DNA from: an uncultured Gammaproteobacteria bacterium
GTDB taxonomy: Bacteria; Patescibacteriota; Patescibacteriia; UBA10025; JAHIVO01
DNA length: 64,000 nt
Assembly (NCBI GenBank): GCA_964628855.1
Contig: CAZVMV010000005.1
Coordinates: forward strand, 3,228 to 67,227
Direction of reading: 5' to 3'
Shown: positions 51,736 to 62,626 of the stretch, one piece after another
How positions within the stretch are numbered: the stretch's first letter is position 1
How the letters are laid out: every line of letters begins with the position of its first letter
The notes under the pieces: model-generated
The model's database searches: none
Seen by the model: the letters and a program-made list of their open reading frames with translations, nothing else
Told to the model about the DNA's origin: nothing
Program-made: the position numbers and the translations under genes

Positions 51736-52674
51736 CTAATCCTGTTTCAAAGGATGGAATTTTCGATGTGTATCCTCAGCATATCTATCCGAGGCGTTGA
51801 CATAACGTGTAGTGGTGTCCAGCGATTCGTGGCCAAGCAGGATTTGGATGGCGGCTGGGTTAGCGCCAGATTCTGCTAAATACGTAGCGAAGCCGTGGCG
51901 GAGGCTGTGGGCTGACGTGGGAACATTAATTCGTAAACGTTCCCTGTACTGTTTTATTTTCCGTTGGAACTGGCTTGGTGAAATTCTTGCATTGATCGAT
52001 GCTGCTTTGGACCCGCGGTAGGGGATGAAGAGCGCCGGATGGTTGTCGCGGCGTGTGCGGAGGTATTCCTCTATATGAACTTTAGCACGCTGGGTCAGAT
52101 AGACAAACCGTTGCTTGCGGCCTTTGCCGGTGATGAAGATTTTGCCGGTCGGATCAATCTGGTTTTTATTCAGGTTAATCAGCTCCGATATACGCATGCC
52201 CGTGGCAAAGAGCGTCTCCAGCATGGCCCGATTGCGGAGAGCGACGTATTTGTTATTTTTTTCGAATTCAGAAGGGGATTCGATTAGACGGACGATATCA
52301 TTCAATTCAGCCACCTGAGGGTGCTTTTTTATCGTTTTAGTGAGCCGTATCACCTGCGGATTCACCGGACAGTCGTAATCGTTGTCTATGAGGTATTTGA
52401 GGTATGACCTGAGGGCTGACAGCATCCGGTTGATGGAATACGGGTTCAGGCGCTTCAGACCCTTCTGCGCCTCGGCTGTTTCCCTGTCCCGGGACACCAA
52501 GTAGGCCTTGTAGAGCTCCAGATCACGCCTCTGGAGCTTCTGGAAGGGGACGGAGGACTCGGTATCCAGGTAGTGCTCGAAAACCTTCAGGTCGCGTTCG
52601 TAGTTGTAGACCGTCTTCTCCGAATAATTATTCGTCTGAAGATTCAGTAGGAAGTCGTCTAAATGAGGTAACAT
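51736..52674 (-). CDS. Tyrosine recombinase, XerC/XerD-like
   Basis: An N-terminal SAM-like core-binding domain is present. The catalytic region reads ATGMRISEL...HSLRHGFATYL...LLGHESLDTTTRYV. Confidence 0.85.
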   Translation of the reverse strand: MLPHLDDFLLNLQTNNYSEKTVYNYERDLKVFEHYLDTESSVPFQKLQRRDLELYKAYLVSRDRETAEAQKGLKRLNPYSINRMLSALRSYLKYLIDNDYDCPVNPQVIRLTKTIKKHPQVAELNDIVRLIESPSEFEKNNKYVALRNRAMLETLFATGMRISELINLNKNQIDPTGKIFITGKGRKQRFVYLTQRAKVHIEEYLRTRRDNHPALFIPYRGSKAASINARISPSQFQRKIKQYRERLRINVPTSAHSLRHGFATYLAESGANPAAIQILLGHESLDTTTRYVNASDRYAEDTHRKFHPLKQD

Positions 52675-52850
52675 ATGTTTATTATAGGGGATTTCACCCC
52701 ATTTGATAACACAGTGTAAGAGATATTATACTGAGATACCTTTATAGTATAGAATAGGGCTATTTCGCTGTAAAGACCCTTTTGAGGATAAAAAAAGGGA
52801 TGGACCTTTCGTAGACCCATACCCTGTTCATTTGGTATTGCGTTCGTACA

Positions 52851-52991
52851 TCATAGAACAAATCTGGGAAACAATTTCTTTGCTCCCCTGGCAATCTGCC
52901 CAAAGACATATGAGCACGTGAACGGAAACGTACATACGAACGCCGCCCAGATCAATACAATTGCCAGCCTCTGCCAGTCGGAAAATGACAT
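52851..52991 (-). CDS. Hypothetical 46-aa membrane peptide (not in ORF track)
   Basis: The RBS GAGGAG lies before the ATG at 52991. Hand translation gives MSFSDWQRLAIVLIWAAFVCTFPFTCSYVFGQIARGAKKLFPRFVL. Confidence 0.35.
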   Translation of the reverse strand: MSFSDWQRLAIVLIWAAFVCTFPFTCSYVFGQIARGAKKLFPRFVL

Positions 52992-53012
52992 CTACTCCTC
53001 TCTTCCTGTTAA

Positions 53013-53228
53013 TTAGACTCCTCCAAGCCTGAAGTATGTCCCACAGATCATGACACAGATCACGCCGATGGCGGCATATAGCTTACCAATCTTGTCCTGC
53101 AAGACAGATTCATCGATCCTGGAATTGAGTTTCAGTCGCCAGGACCGGTCAAAATGTGTGAAGCAATCAATGATCAGGATCAGCCCGATCAGTCCGACCG
53201 ATAATATTACGTTTCCAAGAATCGACAT
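53013..53228 (-). CDS. Hypothetical small two-TM protein
   Basis: The RBS GGAGGG is upstream. Hydrophobic helices are present. Confidence 0.5.
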   Translation of the reverse strand: MSILGNVILSVGLIGLILIIDCFTHFDRSWRLKLNSRIDESVLQDKIGKLYAAIGVICVMICGTYFRLGGV

Positions 53229-53310
53229 ATACCCTCCGACAGTTATGGAAATGTTCTCTTTGCCTCTACCCTATCACCCATATTTAAAAAAAGCAATATA
53301 AAAAAGCCGG

Positions 53311-53574
53311 TCAGATGACCGACTTCGTGGTTTCAGCCTGAGATTTGTTCAGGTTGTGCTTGAGATTGTCCCAGCGCGGGACAACGGCAGCTGCCAGGGT
53401 GGCGACCAGGAATATGAGTATCAACAACAGGAATACTCTCTTCCTTTTGTCCCAGCGGTTGTAGTACGCTTCATCGGGTTTCCTCTCTCGCCAAATAAAC
53501 GAGACCAGGGCACCGAAGGCGCTTAAACCAACTAGGGCCAGACCGACCATCCAGAGCTGATCTATGGAAAACAT
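53311..53574 (-). CDS. Hypothetical small two-TM protein
   Basis: The RBS GGAGGTG is upstream. Confidence 0.5.
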   Translation of the reverse strand: MFSIDQLWMVGLALVGLSAFGALVSFIWRERKPDEAYYNRWDKRKRVFLLLILIFLVATLAAAVVPRWDNLKHNLNKSQAETTKSVI

Positions 53575-53745
53575 ATATTCACCTCCTCGTGAACAATTTG
53601 GGAAAGAATATTACACTATACTCTCATATAAAATTATGTCAATATTAAAAACGATGTATTATGCCGCCCCCTTGAATGCCTATTAAAATTTAATAATAAA
53701 AACAGGCCAGTTGCCTAGCCTGTCGAATCCTCCATAAGGAACGTA

Positions 53746-53976
53746 TTATTTGTTTTTCATCATTCTTAACAGTGACTGCCGCAAAAAAGCAGCTGCGGCT
53801 TCCTCACTTGCAAATGTGCTGTGAGTCTGGTAATAAGAACGATACGTATGCCCGGTACCTGAGGTAGCCCAGGCCATATATTTCCCCTGTTCGTCGGGGC
53901 CCTCCGTAGTGATGTCTATCCCGCTTAAATTCTGCGGAAGTTCGCCAGCAGACTTGCACTCGATTAGTTTGACCAA
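53746..53976 (-). CDS. Hypothetical soluble miniprotein (76 aa)
   Basis: It has a TTG start with the RBS AAGGAGG 6 nt upstream. The downstream terminator has stem ACAGGC/GCCTGT at 53702-53723 with a T-run on the minus strand. Confidence 0.5.
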   Translation of the reverse strand: MVKLIECKSAGELPQNLSGIDITTEGPDEQGKYMAWATSGTGHTYRSYYQTHSTFASEEAAAAFLRQSLLRMMKNK

Positions 53977-54094
53977 TGCGGTCCTCCTTGAACTATTAAA
54001 TGTTCAATCCTTTTCGGATAAATTGTAGCGTAGTTGCATCTAGGAATCAAATAAAAAAGCCCCTGAAATAGGAGCCCTTTTGTCTCATCTGATA

Positions 54095-54379
54095 CTAGGC
54101 TAGAATCGCCACGATGATCATTATCAGACCAATGATACCCAGCCATACCGCATAGGTGGCATTACGCATGAAACCCTGTTGCGAGTCGGTATAATGGTTA
54201 AACCAGGTTTGGTTTTTCCATCTAGCATTTGCCACGCGTGTGCAGTATGTCCAAATAGCCTTGAATCTTTTCTGGCGTTTATTTTCCAGTATAAATGATC
54301 TATGCGCAACAATAATCTGGCGAACTGAACAGATGAGGAGCAGAAAACCGATAAAGATCAGTGCGGTTTTGAAATTCAT
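54095..54379 (-). CDS. Hypothetical small two-TM protein
   Basis: The RBS GAGGTG is upstream. Confidence 0.5.
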   Translation of the reverse strand: MNFKTALIFIGFLLLICSVRQIIVAHRSFILENKRQKRFKAIWTYCTRVANARWKNQTWFNHYTDSQQGFMRNATYAVWLGIIGLIMIIVAILA

Positions 54380-54455
54380 GCATCACCTCATGAGGGTAGG
54401 TTTCAGTAATTTGGAAGCGTATCAAAATATATTTAAACAGTCAAGGTTAATGTCG

Positions 54456-54704
54456 CTATTTCACCTTTTCAACCTCGATAGTACAATTCGTTACAAGTGC
54501 TGCAACAGCGCCAAGGGCAGCCAGTACAGGCAATAAAATCACGCCAACGGCAGTGGCAGTCATGGGCAATTCGAACAGGATCTCCCCTTTTTCGTTTTTT
54601 ATAGTGATCTTTCGGATGTTGGCCTCATGGACCAGTTTTTTCACAGTCTCAACGAGCTGTTGGCCAGAAACCTTAATCTCCTCTTTGAATGTTTGGTCAG
54701 TCAT
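54456..54704 (-). CDS. DUF4342-like small protein
   Basis: The pattern VSGQQLVETVKKLVHEANIRKITIKNEKGEILFELPMTATAVGVILLPVLAALGAVAALVTNCTIEV matches the remembered DUF4342 layout. Confidence 0.5.
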   Translation of the reverse strand: MTDQTFKEEIKVSGQQLVETVKKLVHEANIRKITIKNEKGEILFELPMTATAVGVILLPVLAALGAVAALVTNCTIEVEKVK

Positions 54705-54800
54705 ACGTTTAAGTTAATGATAGTAATATGATTATAAGCTATTTTATAAATATAAAAAAGCCGTGTGAACGGCTTTTGATACTACGCTGCTATTCCCTGA

Positions 54801-54989
54801 TCAGATAGCTCGACAGTTGATGCATAGCATCCCATTATTGCCTCTGCATTTTTTACATGCTTTTGAGTTGGGTATGTTGTCACATTTGCTCGGCCTGCCG
54901 GGGAATTTTTGATGATGGCCTTTGCGGTGCGGGATGTTGAAAGAGCTAATCGGATTCGAAGATTTATCAGAATTACGCCCGTTACTCAT
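54801..54989 (-). CDS. Hypothetical basic zinc-ribbon-like miniprotein (62 aa)
   Basis: The RBS GGAGG lies 5 nt before the ATG. It contains CKKC...CINC. The downstream terminator has stem AAGCCGT/ACGGCTT near 54755-54780 with T6 on the minus strand. Confidence 0.5.
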   Translation of the reverse strand: MSNGRNSDKSSNPISSFNIPHRKGHHQKFPGRPSKCDNIPNSKACKKCRGNNGMLCINCRAI

Positions 54990-55149
54990 GAAATCCTCCG
55001 ATTTTTATATATTTTATTTTGGCTAATGTTAGCAAAATTAATTAATATATCTTGAAAAATGGCCGTAAATACTAGCTTATTTTAACCTATTTGCTATACT
55101 AGTACCAGGTAGATCTAAATAATAAGCTAATTAACAAAGGAATACTACC

Positions 55150-55431
55150 ATGGCAAAGATGAGCAAAGCTCAGTTGATCAGCAATCTCGCCGAGAAGTCC
55201 GGCCATCCGAAAAAGGATATCGCCGGTTTACTCGACCTCCTCACCGAAATGGCCTATAAGGAGGTTAAGTCCAGCGGTGAATTCACCCTGCCGGGATTCG
55301 GCAAGTTGGTGAAGAAGCAGCGGGCAGCCCGCCAGGGCCGCAACCCAGCCACGGGTGCCACCATCCAGATCCCTGCTAAGACGGTGGTCAAATTCCGTGT
55401 CGCGAAAGCCGCTAAGGAAGCGATTCTCTAA
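55150..55431 (+). CDS. hup: HU/IHF-family DNA-binding protein
   Basis: Motifs SKAQLISNLAEK and GFGKLVKKQRAARQGRNPATGATIQIPAKTVVKFR are present. Confidence 0.9.
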   Translation: MAKMSKAQLISNLAEKSGHPKKDIAGLLDLLTEMAYKEVKSSGEFTLPGFGKLVKKQRAARQGRNPATGATIQIPAKTVVKFRVAKAAKEAIL

Positions 55432-55723: not shown

Positions 55724-55756
55724 ATGCCCGCGAAGTTATCAAGCGGGCATTTTTTT
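55724..55756 (+). terminator. Rho-independent terminator
   Basis: Stem ATGCCCGC/GCGGGCAT is followed by T6. It overlaps the stop of the convergent nuclease gene. Confidence 0.7.
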
Positions 55757-56429
55757 ATCCACGTTTTACATATTTTTTCATTTCCCTGTGCCAGCCGCAG
55801 AAAGGACAGCCTTTTGAGGCGGGCGGCATTTTGCCTTCCAATATTTTGATGGCTTTCAAGAATTCAGTTAAGGCGTTTTGTGGATTGGTTTTTAACGTCT
55901 TAACGGTAATTTCCATGGGAAAACCCTGGTGCAGCTCTCTCCCCATGGCTGGATAAAAATATATCAGATGCCCGATACCGGATGATTTGCGACGGTTTTT
56001 TTCCAATAAAAGCGCATATGTGTCTAATTGTACCTGATAGGCCGGTATCATTTCGTGCTGATTTGGGTCGGAGCTGGAAGTCTTGTGGTCAACCGGCGTG
56101 TAGGTGCCTTGCGGGGTGATTATGCATTCATCCAATTTGCCCATCAAGCCGTAATTCTCGTTGTAATGGTAGAAATACGCTTCAGTAAAAGGATTTTGGA
56201 GTTTACCGTTCACTTGGCCTGAAATCATGGGCGGCAGTTCCCCCGTCGTCCGGTACAGGTCAAAATATTGCTTTATAACCCCGTCAAACCTGTTGGCCAG
56301 TCGTGAGACGATGCCTTCGGGCTGGCGCAGGCCTTTATTGTACTGCAGCCAAAAACAGCGGGGACATCGTTTGGAATTCTCAATGGCCGTCGGCGACATC
56401 CATTTTTTCTTTTTTACGATTTTTTCCAT
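55755..56429 (-). CDS. PD-(D/E)XK nuclease-family protein with four Cys (Cas4/RecB-like fold)
   Basis: The N-terminal motif is CPRC and the core is GKLDECI...PVDHKTS...YQVQLDTYALLL. The C-terminal motif is CPFCGW. Confidence 0.65.
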   Translation of the reverse strand: MEKIVKKKKWMSPTAIENSKRCPRCFWLQYNKGLRQPEGIVSRLANRFDGVIKQYFDLYRTTGELPPMISGQVNGKLQNPFTEAYFYHYNENYGLMGKLDECIITPQGTYTPVDHKTSSSDPNQHEMIPAYQVQLDTYALLLEKNRRKSSGIGHLIYFYPAMGRELHQGFPMEITVKTLKTNPQNALTEFLKAIKILEGKMPPASKGCPFCGWHREMKKYVKRG

Positions 56430-56432
56430 AGG

Positions 56433-57350
56433 TTAACGATAGTATACCATTTCAAAGTAACTCGTGACAGGTACTGACATGTTGTTGGCAAGAAGTCCAG
56501 AATTGGTATTGGCCAGAATCACAGATTTAACGGAACCGAAATTTTTCATCAATTCAAAAAGAAGCGAGATTGATGCGGGCGAATCGACATAGTCATTGAA
56601 CGCCGTACCAAACGACATGATGCCAGAACTGTCCAGGCCAGTAAGCAGCTTGGCGGTAATTTTGTCGTGTGCGGCCGCTTCCTCGGCGGAAAGATAATGC
56701 GAGAAATCAACCGATGCAATTACTGCAGAATTTTGCGGTAAAATTTCCCCAAGTCCCAAAGCAAGACTGGAGATTTGAGCGGTCGACGTTTCGGCCTTGA
56801 GGATTAGAGGAATTATTCTGGCATTTGGCATGAATTGTGCGATGACAGGCATAATGCCCGTGACTGAATGGTCGCCCTGTATGACAGTCGGGTCGGATTG
56901 GACGCCGTATTTATCCAGCAGTGATCTGATTATTGAACTGTTTTGTTTGATAAGCCCCTTCGGCGTTGACCATGCTATATCTGCCGTAAGGATATTTACA
57001 GCTCCGCGTTCGTAGTGGTTTGGTCCAATGATCACTATCGTTGAGACATTTTGCCTTGCCAGGTGCTGGATAACGTCAAAGGCATATTCCAGATGCTGGA
57101 TGTCATGAGGGACTATGCTGCCGTAAATTTTTTCTGTCGGCCATGACGCGGTCGCGGCCTGACTGGCCAGTCTCTGGCCGTTTAGCCAATTTGATTGGTC
57201 ATAATAGATGACTGGGAGCTTTTCTGGCGGTTGGATCTGCTTATTTCCGGATTTTTCCTGGCCAGCCAGGCGTGCCGCTACCGCGGCACCGGCGCCGATC
57301 AGGGCGCCGGCTACCGCAAACGTAATGATTACTTTGCCGAGAGTGTTCAT
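56433..57350 (-). CDS. Memo-family (AmmeMemoRadiSam protein B-like) protein with N-terminal TM anchor
   Basis: The TM helix is VIITFAVAGALIGAGAAVAA. Motifs GSIVPHD, VIIGPNHYERG and SVDFSHYLS are present. It forms an ATGA overlap with the upstream giant gene. Confidence 0.6.
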   Translation of the reverse strand: MNTLGKVIITFAVAGALIGAGAAVAARLAGQEKSGNKQIQPPEKLPVIYYDQSNWLNGQRLASQAATASWPTEKIYGSIVPHDIQHLEYAFDVIQHLARQNVSTIVIIGPNHYERGAVNILTADIAWSTPKGLIKQNSSIIRSLLDKYGVQSDPTVIQGDHSVTGIMPVIAQFMPNARIIPLILKAETSTAQISSLALGLGEILPQNSAVIASVDFSHYLSAEEAAAHDKITAKLLTGLDSSGIMSFGTAFNDYVDSPASISLLFELMKNFGSVKSVILANTNSGLLANNMSVPVTSYFEMVYYR

Positions 57351-60300
57351 TTAATAGTAACTGACTCTGATTGGCCAAAAGCCTTGCTTGTAGGCACTTT
57401 GAAACCCCTGATCAGTGTCGGCTCTGCAGTGAAGGAGCCTTTGCTGATAACTGTGGCATAATAATGCATTTCTCTGGCCGGTTTGCCGCTCCAGAATTTT
57501 ATGGCCTGACCGTTGATTTCATATGGATATGCCAAGTTTGGGTCGTAATTGATAAGCCGGTTGTAAGCGTAGGACAGGACTTTCAATCCAGCTGGCAGGT
57601 AATCAACAATCTGGTACTCATTGTCGATGGCTTTTGAGTTTATGGATGGTTCAAGAACGATTTTAACCAAATCGTTTTCTTTCAATGTGCTAGTCGCTTT
57701 GCCGTCAACGTAGAACGTACGTTTGATAGAGAGGCTGCTGTCTGTTTTTTCCGCCTTTATGTCCAGCGGCACGTCGTTTGTTTGGATCACGCCAACATTA
57801 CCCGTGATATTGGAGAATGTCAGGCCTGATAACTGACTTGGCGTCACTGACAATGATTCTGTCTCATCACCTGATAGTGAAACATTTTTTGCCTGCCCAT
57901 CCAATGTGTAAGTGAATTTAACTGCTTCCCCAGAGAGTAATGGCAAAACCTTCTGTAGGTAGCCGATCTGTTCAAGGCTATTCAGTTGGTCCACAGCCGG
58001 ATGGTCCACCGCATAGGCGAACATTTTCGTCGCTTCTGGAGCAGAGACGTTGGCGGCAATTATTGCGGCTTGGTAGGTGTTTTCGGTGTAATCGTCATTT
58101 GTCTCACCTAGTTTGAGCCGGAAATAAGGTTCCTGGACTTCTCCGTATTTTTTTACGACATCGGCCAGCAATGATCGGGCATACTCCCCTGCTCCGAGGT
58201 TGGCCAGACCATTAGCCAGGTAAAGTTTCAGGTTATCCGGGACATCATTATTATCCATCAGGCTGAGGATATCGTTAAGAACTGGCTCGCCCATATTGGC
58301 TTCACCGTACAATGCATAAACAATCTCATCTAGATTGCTGTTCTTATTTTTCAGTGTTGTTTCAAAATACCCCCTGGCATCATTTTTATCGAAGATATCT
58401 GGAGCGACTGCCATCGTTTTGGCGGTCAGGAGTAATTCTGCAGACGAATATGGCAGGATACTGAGCCCGCCCTCAGGTGTCTGGTAGTCAGTAAAACTTA
58501 TTTCCTCTCCCATTCCTTTTTGGCCAAAGTAAGTGTTGAGTAGTTTTTGGGATATGACCCGAGCCAGCTTCTGGTCAATCCGGTCCCCGTACGCATATTT
58601 CAACTGCGACAAGTCATTCAGGTATTGCCCACGTTCTTTATTTGTGAACAAAAGTGAAGTACGGCTGGCGCCATCTGCCGTCAGTTTCAGATCATTTGTC
58701 ACGGCCAGGTATTTTATGTCTTGCTTGGTCAAATGCGTGGGCGTGATAGTGATTGTTTTCGTCAGCGTATCTGTATGTCCTGCCGCCGAAGCCTTGACCG
58801 TGATTTTGTGCTGTCCGGCTTCAAATTTCGGCAGCGCTACGTCAGCGGCAACGAAAGCTTTGGCGGTATACTTTTCTGTTTTATTTATGTCGGGGTATGT
58901 TACTTCAAACGAAACCGTGTCTGTGGCGGACAAAGCCTGGCCAAAACCCCGTAACTTAATAATGGGCTGGTCAGTGGTTAAATATTCGCTAGCAACCGCC
59001 ACGTCAGCGAAGAATGGGAGCGTTGCCACTACCGCTGTCCTTGTGCCGCCAGCTGAGAGATCCTCAGTAATTGCCTGGACAGTAGTTTGCCAGCTGGTGA
59101 CATTGTCCGGGAGTTTGAATGATATACTGGCTTTGCCGTCGCGGCCGGTTTCTGTACTGCCGAAATACGCCACGTCCTGGAAATTTTGCCTTCCACCACC
59201 TTTTTCGTTATGCACATAGAGTCCAGAAGCGATAAACGTATGGGCTGGATCAGTGGTTAGGTTATATACGTCAGTATATCGGTGATGCCTGACAATGGAA
59301 GTGATTAGCACGGATTGCCCGTTGGCATCAGTAAGGAAATCGCCGACGTGGGCATTACCGGCAATTTCCCATTTACCGTTAATGAGGATGACATGTACCG
59401 GAGTCACATTTAAACGTTCGTTTATAGACAAATATTCAGCCACTGTGTGCTTGATCGTATTAGTGACTTTTGCCGTGGTCATGTTCAGGTTATTTTCATT
59501 TTCAAAAGTCCTGATCTGATCTCCGATTTCCACACTGTCGATTCGTTTTTCTGTTCCATCCGCTAGACTAATCATTGTTTCTCCAGTGAAACAACCGCCA
59601 CGTTCGGCCATCGGTGAAACATTTTCCTTATGGGAACTATATGACATGGTTACTGATGACGGCAATTGCTGGTACAGGGCACCCAGAGTGTTCAAGCTGG
59701 TTTCCCATTGGATAGCTGCCAGAGCCTGGTCTATCAGGGATACGTTGACTGCGGCTTTGACCGGTTTGCTGTCAGGGTCAGTTACCGATAAATCCAGCTT
59801 AACTTTATCGCCAGGCGCATAGGCAGCTTTATCTTGGGTTACGTCGACAGTAAGTTTTTTTGGATCTGTTTTCATGACAATATTAGCGGTAGCTTGGCGA
59901 TATGATCGGCCATTGAAATATATTGCGTAAACGTAAACATTCGGTGCGTATGCTTCCTTGAATGGGAAAGATATTTCTGGATTAGCCCCGGCATTAATGT
60001 CGCTGATGCCGTTATGTTCCTTGAAAAACAGGAAGTCGTTGTTGCCTGTAGACGTGACGGTGACGTCATCTTTTTTTAGGGTTGCAACCACGTTTTCGCC
60101 CGGCGCATACACGTTTTGCACAGTTTCATTCTCGTGGTTCGTAGACAGGTAGTAGTAATCATAGGAGCTTCCCGGTATGCCATAGCTTGAGCCATAAGAG
60201 GATGATTCTACCGCATGCCCATTTGAGTCAGTCGTTGAGGCAATGACTTTGTACCATTTTTTTGGCTGGGTTGTGTAATTGTACGAAAAACTTCCGTCCG

Positions 60301-62626
60301 AACCGGAGTTGACGTCCGTTTCGGCAATTGATTTCTCACGGTACTCGTAACGGTAAGAAGTGATTGTTTTTTTGTTTATAAAATCGTAGGTCGTACCATT
60401 TTCGATTTTGTCGTAATACTGCTCATAAACATTCAGGTGGACTTTTGCGTTTGCTACTGGTTTGCCCAGGTAGTCCCATTTTATGTCATTTCCCGGCGCA
60501 TTCAGGTTAGTTAAGTCGACGGCATTTACTTTTCCGTTGACTTTACCTGGCTCGTTCTGCTCAAGGGTAATCGCTGAACGTGAATTAAACTGATAAATAT
60601 TGGCCGTACTTTCGATATATGTAAGTTCGGCCTGGACAGGATGGACAGTGATATAGGACGAAGAATATTGCTGTGTTTGGTACTGTTCATAGGGCCGATC
60701 AAATGATAGTCGTGCCGCACCGGTGGAATCGGTGGTTACGGTCCCCTCCCCGAATTGCCCCGTATACTGCAATTGGAGGTTGCTAACCGGCGTTCCGTCA
60801 AAGAATTTGGCCGTAACATCAAAAACAGCTTTTTCGCCTGAGAAGATGGCTTTTTTCGGCATGGAAATATCGATGCCGTAGGAAGGTTTGGTATAGGTCT
60901 GGATATCGACATACCCGACAGAAATTTGCTGGTCACCTGCCATCACCCGGACCTGGTAAGATCCTGGGTTGAGGTTTTGGTATTTAATAGTCCCCTCAAA
61001 AGTACCGTAGTCGCTGATAGCGGCTTTTGAAGTTCCGACCACATTTTCTTGCGATGTTTCGTTGCTATAGGTGAATGAAATTAAGTTTACTGTGACCTCT
61101 GGCAGTTTTTGGCCAGCCCTGGATTTTGCGATTCCCCAAAATTTTATGCTATCAGTGGGCAGGTATAAGGAACGGTTGGTGTATAGGTATGACCAGTAGT
61201 CCGGATTTGTAGCAGCTGGGCCGCTTGGATAGGCCATGTATTCATAATTGTTCATTTGGGCTGGCACAAGCAGCTTGTCATTACCGCTGGATATTATGAA
61301 ATGGTAGGTGCGGTCTGACTGATCGGAGTATTGACTTGTCGTAAGAGCATGGAGTTCTTCCGGAGTTTCCCAGGCGCCCACTCCCTGATCATTGGTGGAA
61401 GCGACTTTACTGTCATCTTTTGAATATGTGATTGTCGCATTTTTTTCCGGAAGTTTCGTGGTCAGTCGGTGAACCCATATCAGTGAGTTGGTTTTACTTA
61501 TTTGCAAAGTACTGACCAAATCACTGACTTGAACGAACGCCTGGGTTTTACCGTTGGCATAGGATATTTCTACCAGGTATTGACCGGCTCGGAGATTGTC
61601 CGGGAATTCGATATACCGGAAATAATCGCCAGACTTCAGGTCAGCGCTAAAGCTCACCTCCTTTGTTAATGAATTTGTTGGGTACGTATAGGAATTACCA
61701 AAATCATAAGCCCATAAAGGGACGCTTACTTCGCGAGTTTTGACTGCATCATTGAATGTATTGAAGTTAGGGAATGACCATACGTCAACTGTTACTTTTG
61801 ACAAATTAGTATTGTATTCGTACATGGTCATGACCGGGTTCTCCTCCGGTGAGAATTCGAAAAATTTACTGTCAAATGACATGTATCCCTGGTTGCTAGC
61901 CGCGTTTACCGTGGCAAATTGGAATGAATAATCGTCCGCCAGAACATCGGTACTGTCCTTAACCCCTAATCCTTTTTTTATAGTAACAGTATAAACCGTG
62001 TTTTCTGTCAGGCTTTTCGGGACGTATACCAGTGTTTTTCTGTGTCGCTCAAAGGTGCCATCAGTACGCGGTGAAATGGAAAAAAATTGTTCCGGGCTAT
62101 CGTAATTTTCAGTTGAAAACGTGACCTCAATGCCAGTATTGGTAGGGATTGATGTGGTTTTGTCGCGAGGCAAGGTGCCAGTAATTTTGAAACTGTCCTT
62201 GATCTGGTAGGCCCATTGGTATTCGCGTTTATTGCTAGTCGCAGTACTAGCGGCTGTTAACGAAAAAGCATAGACCTCGTTTGCCTCTAGCGGCTGGGCT
62301 GGGCTGATAGTAAAAGTATTGTTATCTGATGATTCGATTTTGTACGCAATTTCGGGAGAAACGCTCAGAGCCGCTTCTACGGTTTTTGTTTCAACCGGCC
62401 TGGTGCTGGACAATATAAATGAGGTGTCTGGTAAAGTTCCTAACGAATCCTGTTTGGTCGCTTTCAGTGTAAATTGGTTATCTTCGGTACCTAGGATCAC
62501 TTCAGTTTTTTTAGCGTTTGTGTTTGATGTTTGGCCTTGGTCATGGGAAATAAAATACCAGGTTACACCCCCGGCCGCCAGCAGTGCGACGATTAGGCCG
62601 CTTATAAGCCAGACATTTTTTTTCAT
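57347..62626 (-). CDS. Giant membrane-anchored alpha-2-macroglobulin-like protein (thioester-less) with internal Hint domain
   Basis: It is 1759 aa with an N-terminal TM helix and beta-rich MG-like repeats. The A2M signature is RQNFQDVAYFGSTETGRDGKASISFKLPDNVTSWQTTVQAI. The thioester-site equivalent reads LPYSSAEL. Confidence 0.8.
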   Translation of the reverse strand: MKKNVWLISGLIVALLAAGGVTWYFISHDQGQTSNTNAKKTEVILGTEDNQFTLKATKQDSLGTLPDTSFILSSTRPVETKTVEAALSVSPEIAYKIESSDNNTFTISPAQPLEANEVYAFSLTAASTATSNKREYQWAYQIKDSFKITGTLPRDKTTSIPTNTGIEVTFSTENYDSPEQFFSISPRTDGTFERHRKTLVYVPKSLTENTVYTVTIKKGLGVKDSTDVLADDYSFQFATVNAASNQGYMSFDSKFFEFSPEENPVMTMYEYNTNLSKVTVDVWSFPNFNTFNDAVKTREVSVPLWAYDFGNSYTYPTNSLTKEVSFSADLKSGDYFRYIEFPDNLRAGQYLVEISYANGKTQAFVQVSDLVSTLQISKTNSLIWVHRLTTKLPEKNATITYSKDDSKVASTNDQGVGAWETPEELHALTTSQYSDQSDRTYHFIISSGNDKLLVPAQMNNYEYMAYPSGPAATNPDYWSYLYTNRSLYLPTDSIKFWGIAKSRAGQKLPEVTVNLISFTYSNETSQENVVGTSKAAISDYGTFEGTIKYQNLNPGSYQVRVMAGDQQISVGYVDIQTYTKPSYGIDISMPKKAIFSGEKAVFDVTAKFFDGTPVSNLQLQYTGQFGEGTVTTDSTGAARLSFDRPYEQYQTQQYSSSYITVHPVQAELTYIESTANIYQFNSRSAITLEQNEPGKVNGKVNAVDLTNLNAPGNDIKWDYLGKPVANAKVHLNVYEQYYDKIENGTTYDFINKKTITSYRYEYREKSIAETDVNSGSDGSFSYNYTTQPKKWYKVIASTTDSNGHAVESSSYGSSYGIPGSSYDYYYLSTNHENETVQNVYAPGENVVATLKKDDVTVTSTGNNDFLFFKEHNGISDINAGANPEISFPFKEAYAPNVYVYAIYFNGRSYRQATANIVMKTDPKKLTVDVTQDKAAYAPGDKVKLDLSVTDPDSKPVKAAVNVSLIDQALAAIQWETSLNTLGALYQQLPSSVTMSYSSHKENVSPMAERGGCFTGETMISLADGTEKRIDSVEIGDQIRTFENENNLNMTTAKVTNTIKHTVAEYLSINERLNVTPVHVILINGKWEIAGNAHVGDFLTDANGQSVLITSIVRHHRYTDVYNLTTDPAHTFIASGLYVHNEKGGGRQNFQDVAYFGSTETGRDGKASISFKLPDNVTSWQTTVQAITEDLSAGGTRTAVVATLPFFADVAVASEYLTTDQPIIKLRGFGQALSATDTVSFEVTYPDINKTEKYTAKAFVAADVALPKFEAGQHKITVKASAAGHTDTLTKTITITPTHLTKQDIKYLAVTNDLKLTADGASRTSLLFTNKERGQYLNDLSQLKYAYGDRIDQKLARVISQKLLNTYFGQKGMGEEISFTDYQTPEGGLSILPYSSAELLLTAKTMAVAPDIFDKNDARGYFETTLKNKNSNLDEIVYALYGEANMGEPVLNDILSLMDNNDVPDNLKLYLANGLANLGAGEYARSLLADVVKKYGEVQEPYFRLKLGETNDDYTENTYQAAIIAANVSAPEATKMFAYAVDHPAVDQLNSLEQIGYLQKVLPLLSGEAVKFTYTLDGQAKNVSLSGDETESLSVTPSQLSGLTFSNITGNVGVIQTNDVPLDIKAEKTDSSLSIKRTFYVDGKATSTLKENDLVKIVLEPSINSKAIDNEYQIVDYLPAGLKVLSYAYNRLINYDPNLAYPYEINGQAIKFWSGKPAREMHYYATVISKGSFTAEPTLIRGFKVPTSKAFGQSESVTIK
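59207..59593 (-). mobile_element. Hint (mini-intein / bacterial intein-like) domain inserted in the A2M-like ORF
   Basis: It spans residues 1012-1140. Block A is CFTGETMISLADG, block B is NVTPVHV and blocks F/G are DVYNLTTDPAHTFIASGLYVHN. No endonuclease module is present, and the +1 residue is Glu. Confidence 0.7.

Follow-up and report, generated by a model that had tools for sequence, protein, structure and literature searches.

The window analysed here, a stretch of 64,000 nucleotides of contig CAZVMV010000005.1, carries on its minus strand a gene for a large alpha-2-macroglobulin (A2M)-like protein (57347..62626, stop codon included; 1759 amino acids) and, within this gene and on the same strand, a segment encoding a Hint domain (59207..59593; residues 1012-1140, 129 amino acids). 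The domain lies at the bait position of the host protein, where it may act as a built-in trigger. It reads CFTGETMISLADG...NVTPVHV...DVYNLTTDPAHTFIASGLYVHN, with ...SPMAERGG before it and EKGGGRQNFQDVAYF...LPDNVTSWQ after it. These positions, residues and flanks are exactly those given by the first-pass annotation, but the feature belongs to the minus strand, since 59207-59593 is riddled with stops when translated on the plus strand. The host protein is identical to an entry of a public protein collection (P0001).

Curated sequence models and structure prediction agree on the identity of the inserted segment, with matches far stronger than chance would give. In Pfam, residues 1002-1140 scored above the cut-off for Hint (PF01079; 33.3 bits, cut-off 29.7), Vint (PF14623; 32.6 bits, cut-off 27) and PT-HINT (PF07591; 29.0 bits, cut-off 27.7), the last of which matched from end to end (profile positions 2-136 of 137), and the NCBIfam model intein_Cterm matched residues 1119-1140 (18.1, cut-off 15.6). 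An AlphaFold2 (ColabFold) model that covers residues 1001-1155 and draws on 42 homologues (43-sequence alignment) was all-beta with a mean pLDDT of 89.5 and a core above 95. A Foldseek search with this model returned 64 Hint, intein, BIL (bacterial intein-like domain) and Hedgehog structures of the PDB at E<=1e-3, headed by BIL2 of Tetrahymena BUBL1 (6tmm/6y75; E=6e-12, TM 0.76) and followed by the Ssp DnaB mini-intein and the C. thermocellum BIL 2lwy, and then by other mini-inteins and Hedgehog Hh-C. The blocks of a Hint domain can be assigned to Cys1012 (block A), Thr1075-Pro-Val-His1078 (block B), Val1120-Tyr-Asn1122 together with His1129 (block F), and His1139-Asn1140 (block G). An endonuclease insert is absent, and a Hint of 129 amino acids leaves no room for one. 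The segment thus combines the curated sequence models, the Hint beta-fold, and the Cys1 and TxxH residues that define the HINT superfamily. The first-pass annotation had read the four blocks and the lack of an endonuclease from the letters, and the matches in Pfam, AlphaFold2, Foldseek and the 2lwy profile bear this out.

Within this superfamily, type A BILs are defined by a terminal His-Asn and a missing nucleophile at position +1 (PMC4031507). The segment ends in His-Asn and is followed by Glu1141, in place of Cys, Ser or Thr. It is also closer to BILs than to inteins, because a profile of the family Hint matched 2lwy at 1.4e-17, the Tetrahymena BIL2 at ~3e-15 and 8w20 at 6.6e-12, while the best true intein, the Mtu RecA mini-intein, was matched at 1.4e-9. 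The Hint and 2lwy have in common the signature VYN(F/L)xVxxxHT(F/Y)...VHN, in which the block F residue is Asn; class-1 inteins have Asp at this position. By its sequence, the segment is a Hint of the BIL type A / PT-HINT class with a full set of predicted catalytic residues, and not an intein. We infer from the conservation of these residues that the domain would cleave the chain autocatalytically at its N-terminus, its C-terminus or both, with or without ligation. In BILs, which lack the +1 nucleophile, N- and C-cleaved products predominate (PMC7664689), and type A BILs can also ligate their flanks when the freed amine attacks the N-terminal thioester (PMC4031507).

The host protein is a member of the A2M / thioester-containing superfamily, with a ring of macroglobulin (MG) domains, a bait-region domain (BRD), a helical thioester domain (TED)-like region and a C-terminal MG domain. 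Pfam located Big_5 at residues 146-239 and MG2 at residues 480-562. The bait-region domain (A2M_BRD; residues 835-970, 59717..60124, minus strand; E=1.3e-13) lies on the MG6a/LNK side of the insertion and aligns to residues 457-629 of C5 and to ECAM. Beyond the Hint, 619 amino acids comprise the conserved A2M, TED-like and C-terminal MG domains, as identified by Pfam, the AlphaFold2 model and Foldseek. The A2M domain (PF00207; residues 1154-1214, 58985..59167, minus strand) contains LPDNVTSW at 1172-1179, and the TED-like region (residues ~1330-1563, 57938..58639, minus strand) corresponds to an all-helical segment, residues 771-1004, of a model of residues 560-1759. This 1200-residue model (pLDDT 85.4) matched E. 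coli ECAM (5a42, E=2.7e-45), Salmonella A2M, human A2ML1 and A2M, C3/C4/C5, CD109 and TEP1; the matches to A2M, C3, C5, CD109 and TEP1 were all at <=1e-36. ECAM and Salmonella A2M were also matched by the sequence profile of the host family. The pairing of a Hint with an A2M-like host proposed in the first pass therefore holds at the level of hidden Markov models (HMMs), as Hint, Vint, PT-HINT, intein_Cterm, MG2, A2M_BRD and A2M were all above cut-off or significant.

Two further features of the host protein bear on its possible function. Translation of 62552..62611 (minus strand) gives an N-terminal hydrophobic helix, WLISGLIVALLAAGGVTWYF (residues ~6-25), which is probably a signal anchor or a signal peptide, so that the remainder of the protein would be extracytoplasmic; the protein is most simply viewed as membrane-anchored, with its bulk outside the cell. 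A regular-expression search of the host protein for C.EQ found no CxEQ internal thioester motif, and among the homologues P0001-P0104 only P0085 has one. Judged by its sequence, the protein is one of the forms without CxEQ, as is complement C5 (PMC9352918).

The Hint is found at the bait position. On its C-terminal side, the segment equivalent to the alpha'NT "plug" (residues 1141-1153, EKGGGRQNFQDVA; 59168..59206, minus strand) holds Glu1141 (+1), Lys1142 (+2), Arg1146 and Phe1149. In an HMM alignment to human A2M (6tav), this family motif matches residue by residue the human stretch 729-ETVRKYFPETWIW...VPDTITEW, such that R1146-Q-N-F1149...P1173-DNVTSW stands against R732-K-Y-F735...PDTITEW; Arg1146 is human Arg732 and Phe1149 is human Phe735. 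Throughout the family, neither the plug Arg nor the plug Phe varies. The human bait comprises P690-T728, Arg732 and Phe735 are conserved alpha'NT residues, and the alpha'NT threads the central channel in native A2M-family proteins (PMC9352918). Since the C-flank aligns to Arg732/Phe735 just past the bait, the Hint occupies the bait position, as the first-pass annotation had proposed; the Asn1140|Glu1141 junction falls where the human bait has its final one or two residues, five residues before the plug Arg. Across the family, the distance from junction to plug Arg is 3-9 residues, with a mode of 5. The bait of ECAM is likewise bracketed by the ECAM residues that align to the A2M_BRD and A2M domains, and residues Arg923-Leu942 of this bait are disordered in the crystal structure (PMC4498604).

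On its N-terminal side, the Hint is preceded by a bait-like linker (residues 995-1011, ...SYSSHKENVSPMAERGG; 59594..59644, minus strand) with pLDDT <50 (model residues 436-452), which ends in the family-wide motif AExGG, Gly1010-Gly1011 being the -2/-1 residues. Near the Hint, the 1200-residue model is of low confidence only in this linker and at residues 1141-1144 (pLDDT <50), while the Hint itself is well folded; in the model, the domain is a folded bead on two flexible tethers. The motif AExGG is kept in Hint-bearing and Hint-less homologues alike, and in Hint-less orthologues AE[RGK]GG-(E/G/D)GG..R..F.D runs unbroken through the site. Because of this continuity, the Hint represents a clean insertion into a pre-existing Gly-rich linker. 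On the alignment, the bait linker runs up to ...AERGG before the insertion point, and the alpha'NT plug, EKGGG-R1146-QN-F1149, follows it. The near-duplicate flanks ERGG and EKGG that had been pointed out in the first pass are real, but the repeat pre-dates the insertion. We considered whether it was a target-site-like duplication made by the insertion and rejected this idea, as Hint-less orthologues already have AExGG-EGG.

The predicted catalytic residues and the junctions are strongly conserved. A full-length homologue search yielded 112 homologues, of which 42 (~40%) bear a Hint that is always full-length (~129 amino acids) and at the same site. Invariant in 42/42 are Gly-2, Gly-1, Cys1, Phe2, Thr6, the Thr and His of TxxH, a Gly-Asp pair, the block F Val-x-Asn, the terminal Val-His-Asn, and the plug Arg and Phe; a Lys shortly after the junction is likewise present in all 42 aligned sequences. 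A search of 1.84 billion cluster representatives with an HMM of the Hint gave 762 matches at E<=1e-30; among the best 150 of these were 44 additional A2M-like representatives that show these features. Another 31 Hint-bearing loci came from scanning GTDB species genomes. Cys1 and HN are kept in the 44 cluster representatives and in all full-length copies of the 31 genome loci; the sole incomplete copy, that of locus L013, is truncated, and no substituted catalytic residue was seen in the full-length Hint copies examined.

Pooling and de-duplication of the three sources (homologue search, cluster representatives and genome loci) gave 109 Hint-bearing proteins. The first-pass annotation had noted a non-nucleophilic +1 residue, and this proved to be a property of the family: position +1 is Asp in 45, Glu in 40, Gln in 9, Ser in 6, Asn in 4, Ala in 2, and Ile, Thr and Gly in 1 each. 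Asp, Glu, Gln or Asn thus account for 98/109 and Ser or Thr for 7/109, and Cys is found in 0/109. Lys is at +2 in 98 proteins and at +3 in the other 11, hence in 109/109. In contrast, no Hint-less protein has a Lys between AExGG and the plug Arg.

The Hint appears to have been retained rather than to be in decay. Among Hint-bearers, mean pairwise identity was 44.8% for the Hint and 35.7% for the rest of the protein, and the two co-varied (Pearson r=0.71, 820 pairs). In a simple neighbour-joining distance tree built on the non-Hint columns, Hint-bearers fill a few large clades, with isolated Hint-less sequences (P0021, P0065, P0077) nested within them. The picture suggested by these sequences is that of an old Hint gain within the Candidate Phyla Radiation (CPR), with vertical inheritance under purifying selection and few losses. 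Conserved more strongly than its host and inherited vertically, the Hint is better described as domesticated than as decaying. Of the two options put forward in the first pass, a BIL or a decaying intein, the BIL class is supported by 2lwy and BIL2 as the best matches, while decay is contradicted by the retained catalytic residues and by the identity values given above. Recent horizontal acquisition was also considered and rejected: the GC content of the Hint-coding DNA (0.429) is within the range of the gene (0.457 +/- 0.023 for equal-sized windows), and the Hint is the only one in the 64-kb window.

Our statements on taxonomy rest on contig titles. Named Hint-bearing records are mostly Patescibacteria (CPR), with titles of Collier-, Falkow-, Kerfeld-, Uhr-, Moran- and Magasanikbacteria, Parcubacteria, Peri-/Peregrinibacteria, Saccharibacteria and the "Patescibacteria group", and Hint-less members are from Clostridia and other Bacillota, Chloroflexota and some CPR lineages. 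Eight contigs (L007, L008, L016-L018, L023, L083 and L084) are titled Gammaproteobacteria, Pseudomonadales or Nevskiaceae. The proteins of L016-L018 and L023 are 54-78% identical to those of Collierbacteria, Kerfeldbacteria and Falkowbacteria, so that these four titles are doubtful (wrong or mis-binned); the remaining four show <=49% identity to any locus compared. Three loci (L083, L084 and L086) form a second, much more divergent A2M-like group; its Hint belongs to the same subfamily, and its junctions read GGG|CF...HN|[QG]KG. The proteins of L083 and L084 are ~25% identical to the main family, and the second group matches the query over the first ~640 residues only. The presence of this Hint there points to very ancient inheritance or else to movement of the domain from one A2M-like paralogue to another. 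The nearest relatives outside A2M-like proteins (P0120-P0265; for example, P0124, P0136, P0138, P0141, P0149 and P0151) are tandem arrays of 2-14 Hints with almost no extein, in which the copies are 2-5 residues apart (...VHN|KGG(G)|CF...) and Lys is at +1 in 146/214 copies. Of the eight arrays that were scanned, four terminate in Tim44-like domains.

We propose that the Hint is a built-in, protease-independent trigger or maturation device for the A2M-like protein, and we assign this reading a probability of about 0.5. From the sequence, its most likely role is to break the chain at the trigger point, after which an amine might mediate re-ligation. The Hint would fold after export as a bead on its two disordered tethers. 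Cys1012 would attack the carbonyl of Gly1011 in an N-S acyl shift assisted by Thr1075 and His1078, generating a thioester, and Asn1140 would cyclise with the assistance of His1129 and His1139, cutting the chain five residues before the plug Arg. No protease would be needed for the chain to part at one or both ends of the Hint, and a break N-terminal to the alpha'NT would bring about the conformational change of the A2M family. Water could resolve the thioester and leave a two-chain protein, or an amine, either that of Lys1142 or the new alpha-amino group, could do so and re-join the chain. The Hint would then be a self-catalysed counterpart of the processing of C3 by furin plus convertase. The A2M trigger is bait discontinuity rather than bait extension (PMC9352918); we favor a built-in trigger because a chain break just before the alpha'NT triggers the A2M family and because BILs mainly cleave.

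Three observations weigh against this proposal. Constitutive self-triggering seems to defeat a protease trap, and the proposal therefore needs a slow or regulated reaction, or an "induced" conformation that is the mature state. The invariant Lys at +2/+3 is not explained by simple hydrolytic cleavage and points towards amine chemistry, that is, ligation or conjugation; for this reason, alternatives based on an amine stay alive. Finally, a disordered, bait-like stretch of ~17 amino acids is kept upstream of the Hint, which suggests that proteases still matter.

Among the alternatives, BIL-type splicing is one that we regard as possible but somewhat unlikely. The Hint would be excised and the flanks re-joined by aminolysis as ...AERGG-EKGGGR..., through a peptide bond via the alpha-amine of Glu1141 or an isopeptide bond via Lys1142, restoring an ordinary single-chain A2M-like trap; the domain would be a tolerated or domesticated passenger and at most an aid to folding or timing. 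The predicted product, AExGG-[DE]KGG..R, does resemble the Hint-less linker AExGG-(E/D/G)GG..R, aminolysis splicing is possible in type A BILs (PMC4031507), and BIL2, the closest solved fold, ligates its N-extein to a Lys epsilon-amine (PMC8616854). The Lys at +2/+3 in all 109 proteins and the invariant Gly-Gly at -2/-1 (42/42) are also in keeping with such a reaction, and because the termini of the Hint fold adjoin, the insert would add little effective bait length, which matters for native folding (PMC9352918). However, mostly cleavage products are reported for BILs (PMC7664689). A passenger in a non-essential protein, placed in a loop that accommodates an entire domain in C3, should have lost its catalytic residues in some lineages, and no such loss was seen in the full-length copies examined; the family tree suggests few losses, yet the domain has no homing endonuclease. 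A conventional selfish or decaying intein, splicing via a cryptic nucleophile or in the course of being lost, is the least probable reading of all. It would account for the match to intein_Cterm and for the few Hint-less proteins nested among Hint-bearing clades, as expected of occasional precise loss. The +1 residues (Cys 0/109, Ser/Thr 7/109) are not those of a canonical class 1 intein, no endonuclease is present, the host does not belong to the housekeeping enzymes, and the insertion lies in a variable Gly-rich linker; moreover, the sequence is nearer to BILs, the Hint is more conserved than its host, co-diverges with it and is present throughout large clades, and no copy with a substituted catalytic residue was seen, the one incomplete copy, that of L013, being truncated.

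The Gly-Gly end of the N-extein also fits, by analogy, a reading that we consider improbable, in which the Gly1011-Cys1012 thioester would stand in for the missing CxEQ and be attacked by an external amine or hydroxyl. A protease Lys, or a component of a host cell or cell wall, would thereby be linked covalently to the membrane-anchored N-terminal half. The models for such a reaction are the transfer by Hedgehog to cholesterol and the transfer by BIL2 of ubiquitin-like domains to lysines; BIL2, the closest structure, conjugates onto Lys of several substrates (PMC8616854). The family is without CxEQ, the reactive bond would be exactly where an attacking protease engages the bait, and CPR bacteria are likely symbionts or parasites whose large surface proteins have been proposed to function in host interaction (PMC9793634). 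On the other hand, Hint-less family members are also without CxEQ, so that the family works without covalent chemistry; there is no candidate acceptor, the invariant Lys beside the junction would compete in cis, and the basis for this reading is purely one of analogy. A joint reading, which we hold to be doubtful, is that a Gly1011~Cys1012 thioester at the bait would be resolved by lysine chemistry in cis or in trans, with cyclisation of Asn1140 simultaneously firing the conformational change. In cis, Lys1142 would staple the chain through an isopeptide bond; in trans, a Lys of a protease or host-cell surface molecule would be tethered to the membrane-anchored half. A Hint that does no self-processing and is merely a folded stopper or interaction module, as the ANA domain may be seen, is very unlikely. 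A folded domain is present in the same slot of complement factors (PMC9352918), and the Hint is well folded on its flexible tethers in the 1200-residue model, but this explanation leaves unaccounted for both the retention of Cys1, TxxH and the terminal His-Asn in every full-length copy examined and that of Gly-1 and Lys+2/+3 in more than 100 sequences at ~30-45% identity.

Immediately downstream of the A2M-like gene, and overlapping its stop codon, lies a gene (56433..57350, minus strand) whose product is a Memo-like protein of the AmmeMemoRadiSam system protein B family with a membrane anchor (Pfam Memo E=4.9e-20, TIGR04336 101 bits). A Memo-like gene was found downstream of the A2M-like gene at 7/7 loci inspected and at most of the 80 genome loci. 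The pairing holds in L001-L006 and in the majority of L007-L086, the stop codon of one gene frequently overlapping the start codon of the next, and spans Hint-bearing and Hint-less orthologues of CPR, Clostridia and Chloroflexota; it is missing in Peri-/Peregrinibacteria loci. We know of no description of an A2M-Memo gene pair. Orthologues are named "polymorphic toxin-type HINT domain-containing protein" by NCBI, which is a domain label only. We considered the polymorphic toxin reading that this product name implies and rejected it, as there is neither a toxin tip nor an immunity-like neighbour; the Memo-like gene is not evidence of an immunity gene because it also accompanies Hint-less orthologues.

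The second gene downstream (55755-56429, minus strand) encodes a PD-(D/E)XK nuclease of 224 amino acids whose similarity to Cas4 is below threshold (TIGR00372, 35.7 bits, cut-off 65). Further along, the ~2.4 kb at 52675-55150 contains no open reading frame (ORF) of >=120 amino acids and no Rfam match at the gathering threshold; it is bounded by a tyrosine recombinase/integrase gene (51736-52674, minus strand) on one side and by an HU-like gene (55150-55431, plus strand) on the other. The only Rfam match in the whole window is a tRNA (2151-2221). An ORF is listed antisense to the A2M-like gene (58533-59219, plus strand).

The match to a Hint domain is not new in itself, since automatic annotation already labels some orthologues as HINT-domain proteins. 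The searchable library yielded no paper combining "alpha-2-macroglobulin" and "Hint domain", and co-mentions of macroglobulin and intein were irrelevant. The first-pass annotation had not known the arrangement to be described, and we likewise found no paper that links a Hint or intein with alpha-2-macroglobulin. What appears to be undescribed is a BIL fixed, by its sequence, at the bait/alpha'NT boundary of an A2M-like protein without CxEQ, together with its possible mechanistic implication and the invariant flanking Lys. To our knowledge, all A2M/complement-family proteins are thought to be switched by an external protease at the bait or ANA boundary. A conserved self-cleaving module at the bait boundary would, if our reading is true, be a protease-independent or nucleophile-sensitive switch, and a Hint thioester resolved by lysine would be a second, independently evolved form of covalent capture in the A2M/complement superfamily. 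For studies of A2M, the family offers a natural experiment on the plug-in-channel trigger model. For studies of inteins, it provides a clear domesticated BIL, whose host site is fixed, which is represented by over 100 diverse sequences and which has an invariant Lys beside it, and the A2M Hint and BIL2 together hint that amine-directed ligation may be a general property of a Hint subfamily. The family also concerns the biology of CPR/Patescibacteria, as these symbionts have few large conserved surface proteins, of which the host protein is one. The A2M-like proteins of CPR have been noted as a possible protection against host proteases, with no mention of the Hint (PMC9793634).

Comparison with known systems places the domain among BILs and its host among bacterial A2M-like proteins. 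The C. thermocellum BIL 2lwy, a type A BIL, is the best sequence match (E=1.4e-17; TM 0.75-0.83) and has in common with the A2M Hint the fold, Cys1, TxxH, the block F His, the terminal His-Asn and the lack of a +1 nucleophile; both domains reside in a secreted or surface protein, at a site that is not conserved. Adhesins and polymorphic toxins carry the known BILs and PT-HINTs in their variable regions, upstream of the toxin tip. In contrast, the A2M Hint is at a fixed homologous site within a conserved multi-domain A2M-like protein, is vertically inherited across CPR, has the invariant +2/+3 Lys and is followed by no toxin domain. BIL2 of Tetrahymena thermophila BUBL1 (6tmm/6y75) is the closest solved structure by Foldseek. 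The A2M Hint has an invariant Lys beside the junction and Gly-Gly at -2/-1. The thioester of BIL2 is resolved by a lysine epsilon-amine, forming an isopeptide bond (PMC8616854). BIL2 differs in that it is eukaryotic, is flanked by ubiquitin-like domains, has His rather than Asn at block F and is 24% identical to the A2M Hint; Lys-directed ligation is known for BIL2 and is a possibility for the A2M Hint. Hedgehog Hh-C (1at0) has the Hint fold in common (Foldseek E=3.4e-7), lacks the terminal His-Asn and carries a sterol-recognition region, while the residues for C-terminal cleavage are fully conserved in the A2M Hint. Hh-C uses the N-S acyl shift alone and hands its N-terminal fragment over to a nucleophile from outside (PMC7664689).

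The host protein has the same architecture as ECAM/YfhM and Salmonella A2M, namely MG domains, BRD, a TED-like helical domain and a C-terminal MG domain, as well as the N-terminal membrane anchor, which is a predicted one in the host protein. As in bacterial A2M, in which the disordered bait lies inside the MG8/MG6-equivalent domain (PMC4498604), the bait of the host protein is in this domain. The host family differs in lacking CxEQ, in its named records, which are from Clostridia/Bacillota, Chloroflexota and CPR, and in its pairing with a Memo-like gene, ECAM being described as acting with Pbp1C (PMC4498604). The closest parallel to the insertion itself is the ANA domain, a folded domain that replaces the disordered bait in the same slot, from LNK to alpha'NT within MG6, of C3/C4/C5 (PMC9352918). 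ANA is helical and unrelated to Hint, it is cut by external proteases, and C3 and C4 retain CxEQ. In complement, the furin cut at the N-side of ANA is no trigger, and the convertase cut at its C-side frees the alpha'NT and brings about the conformational change (PMC9352918). The A2M Hint, in contrast, would have a predicted self-cleavable bond at each of the two positions at which ANA is cut.

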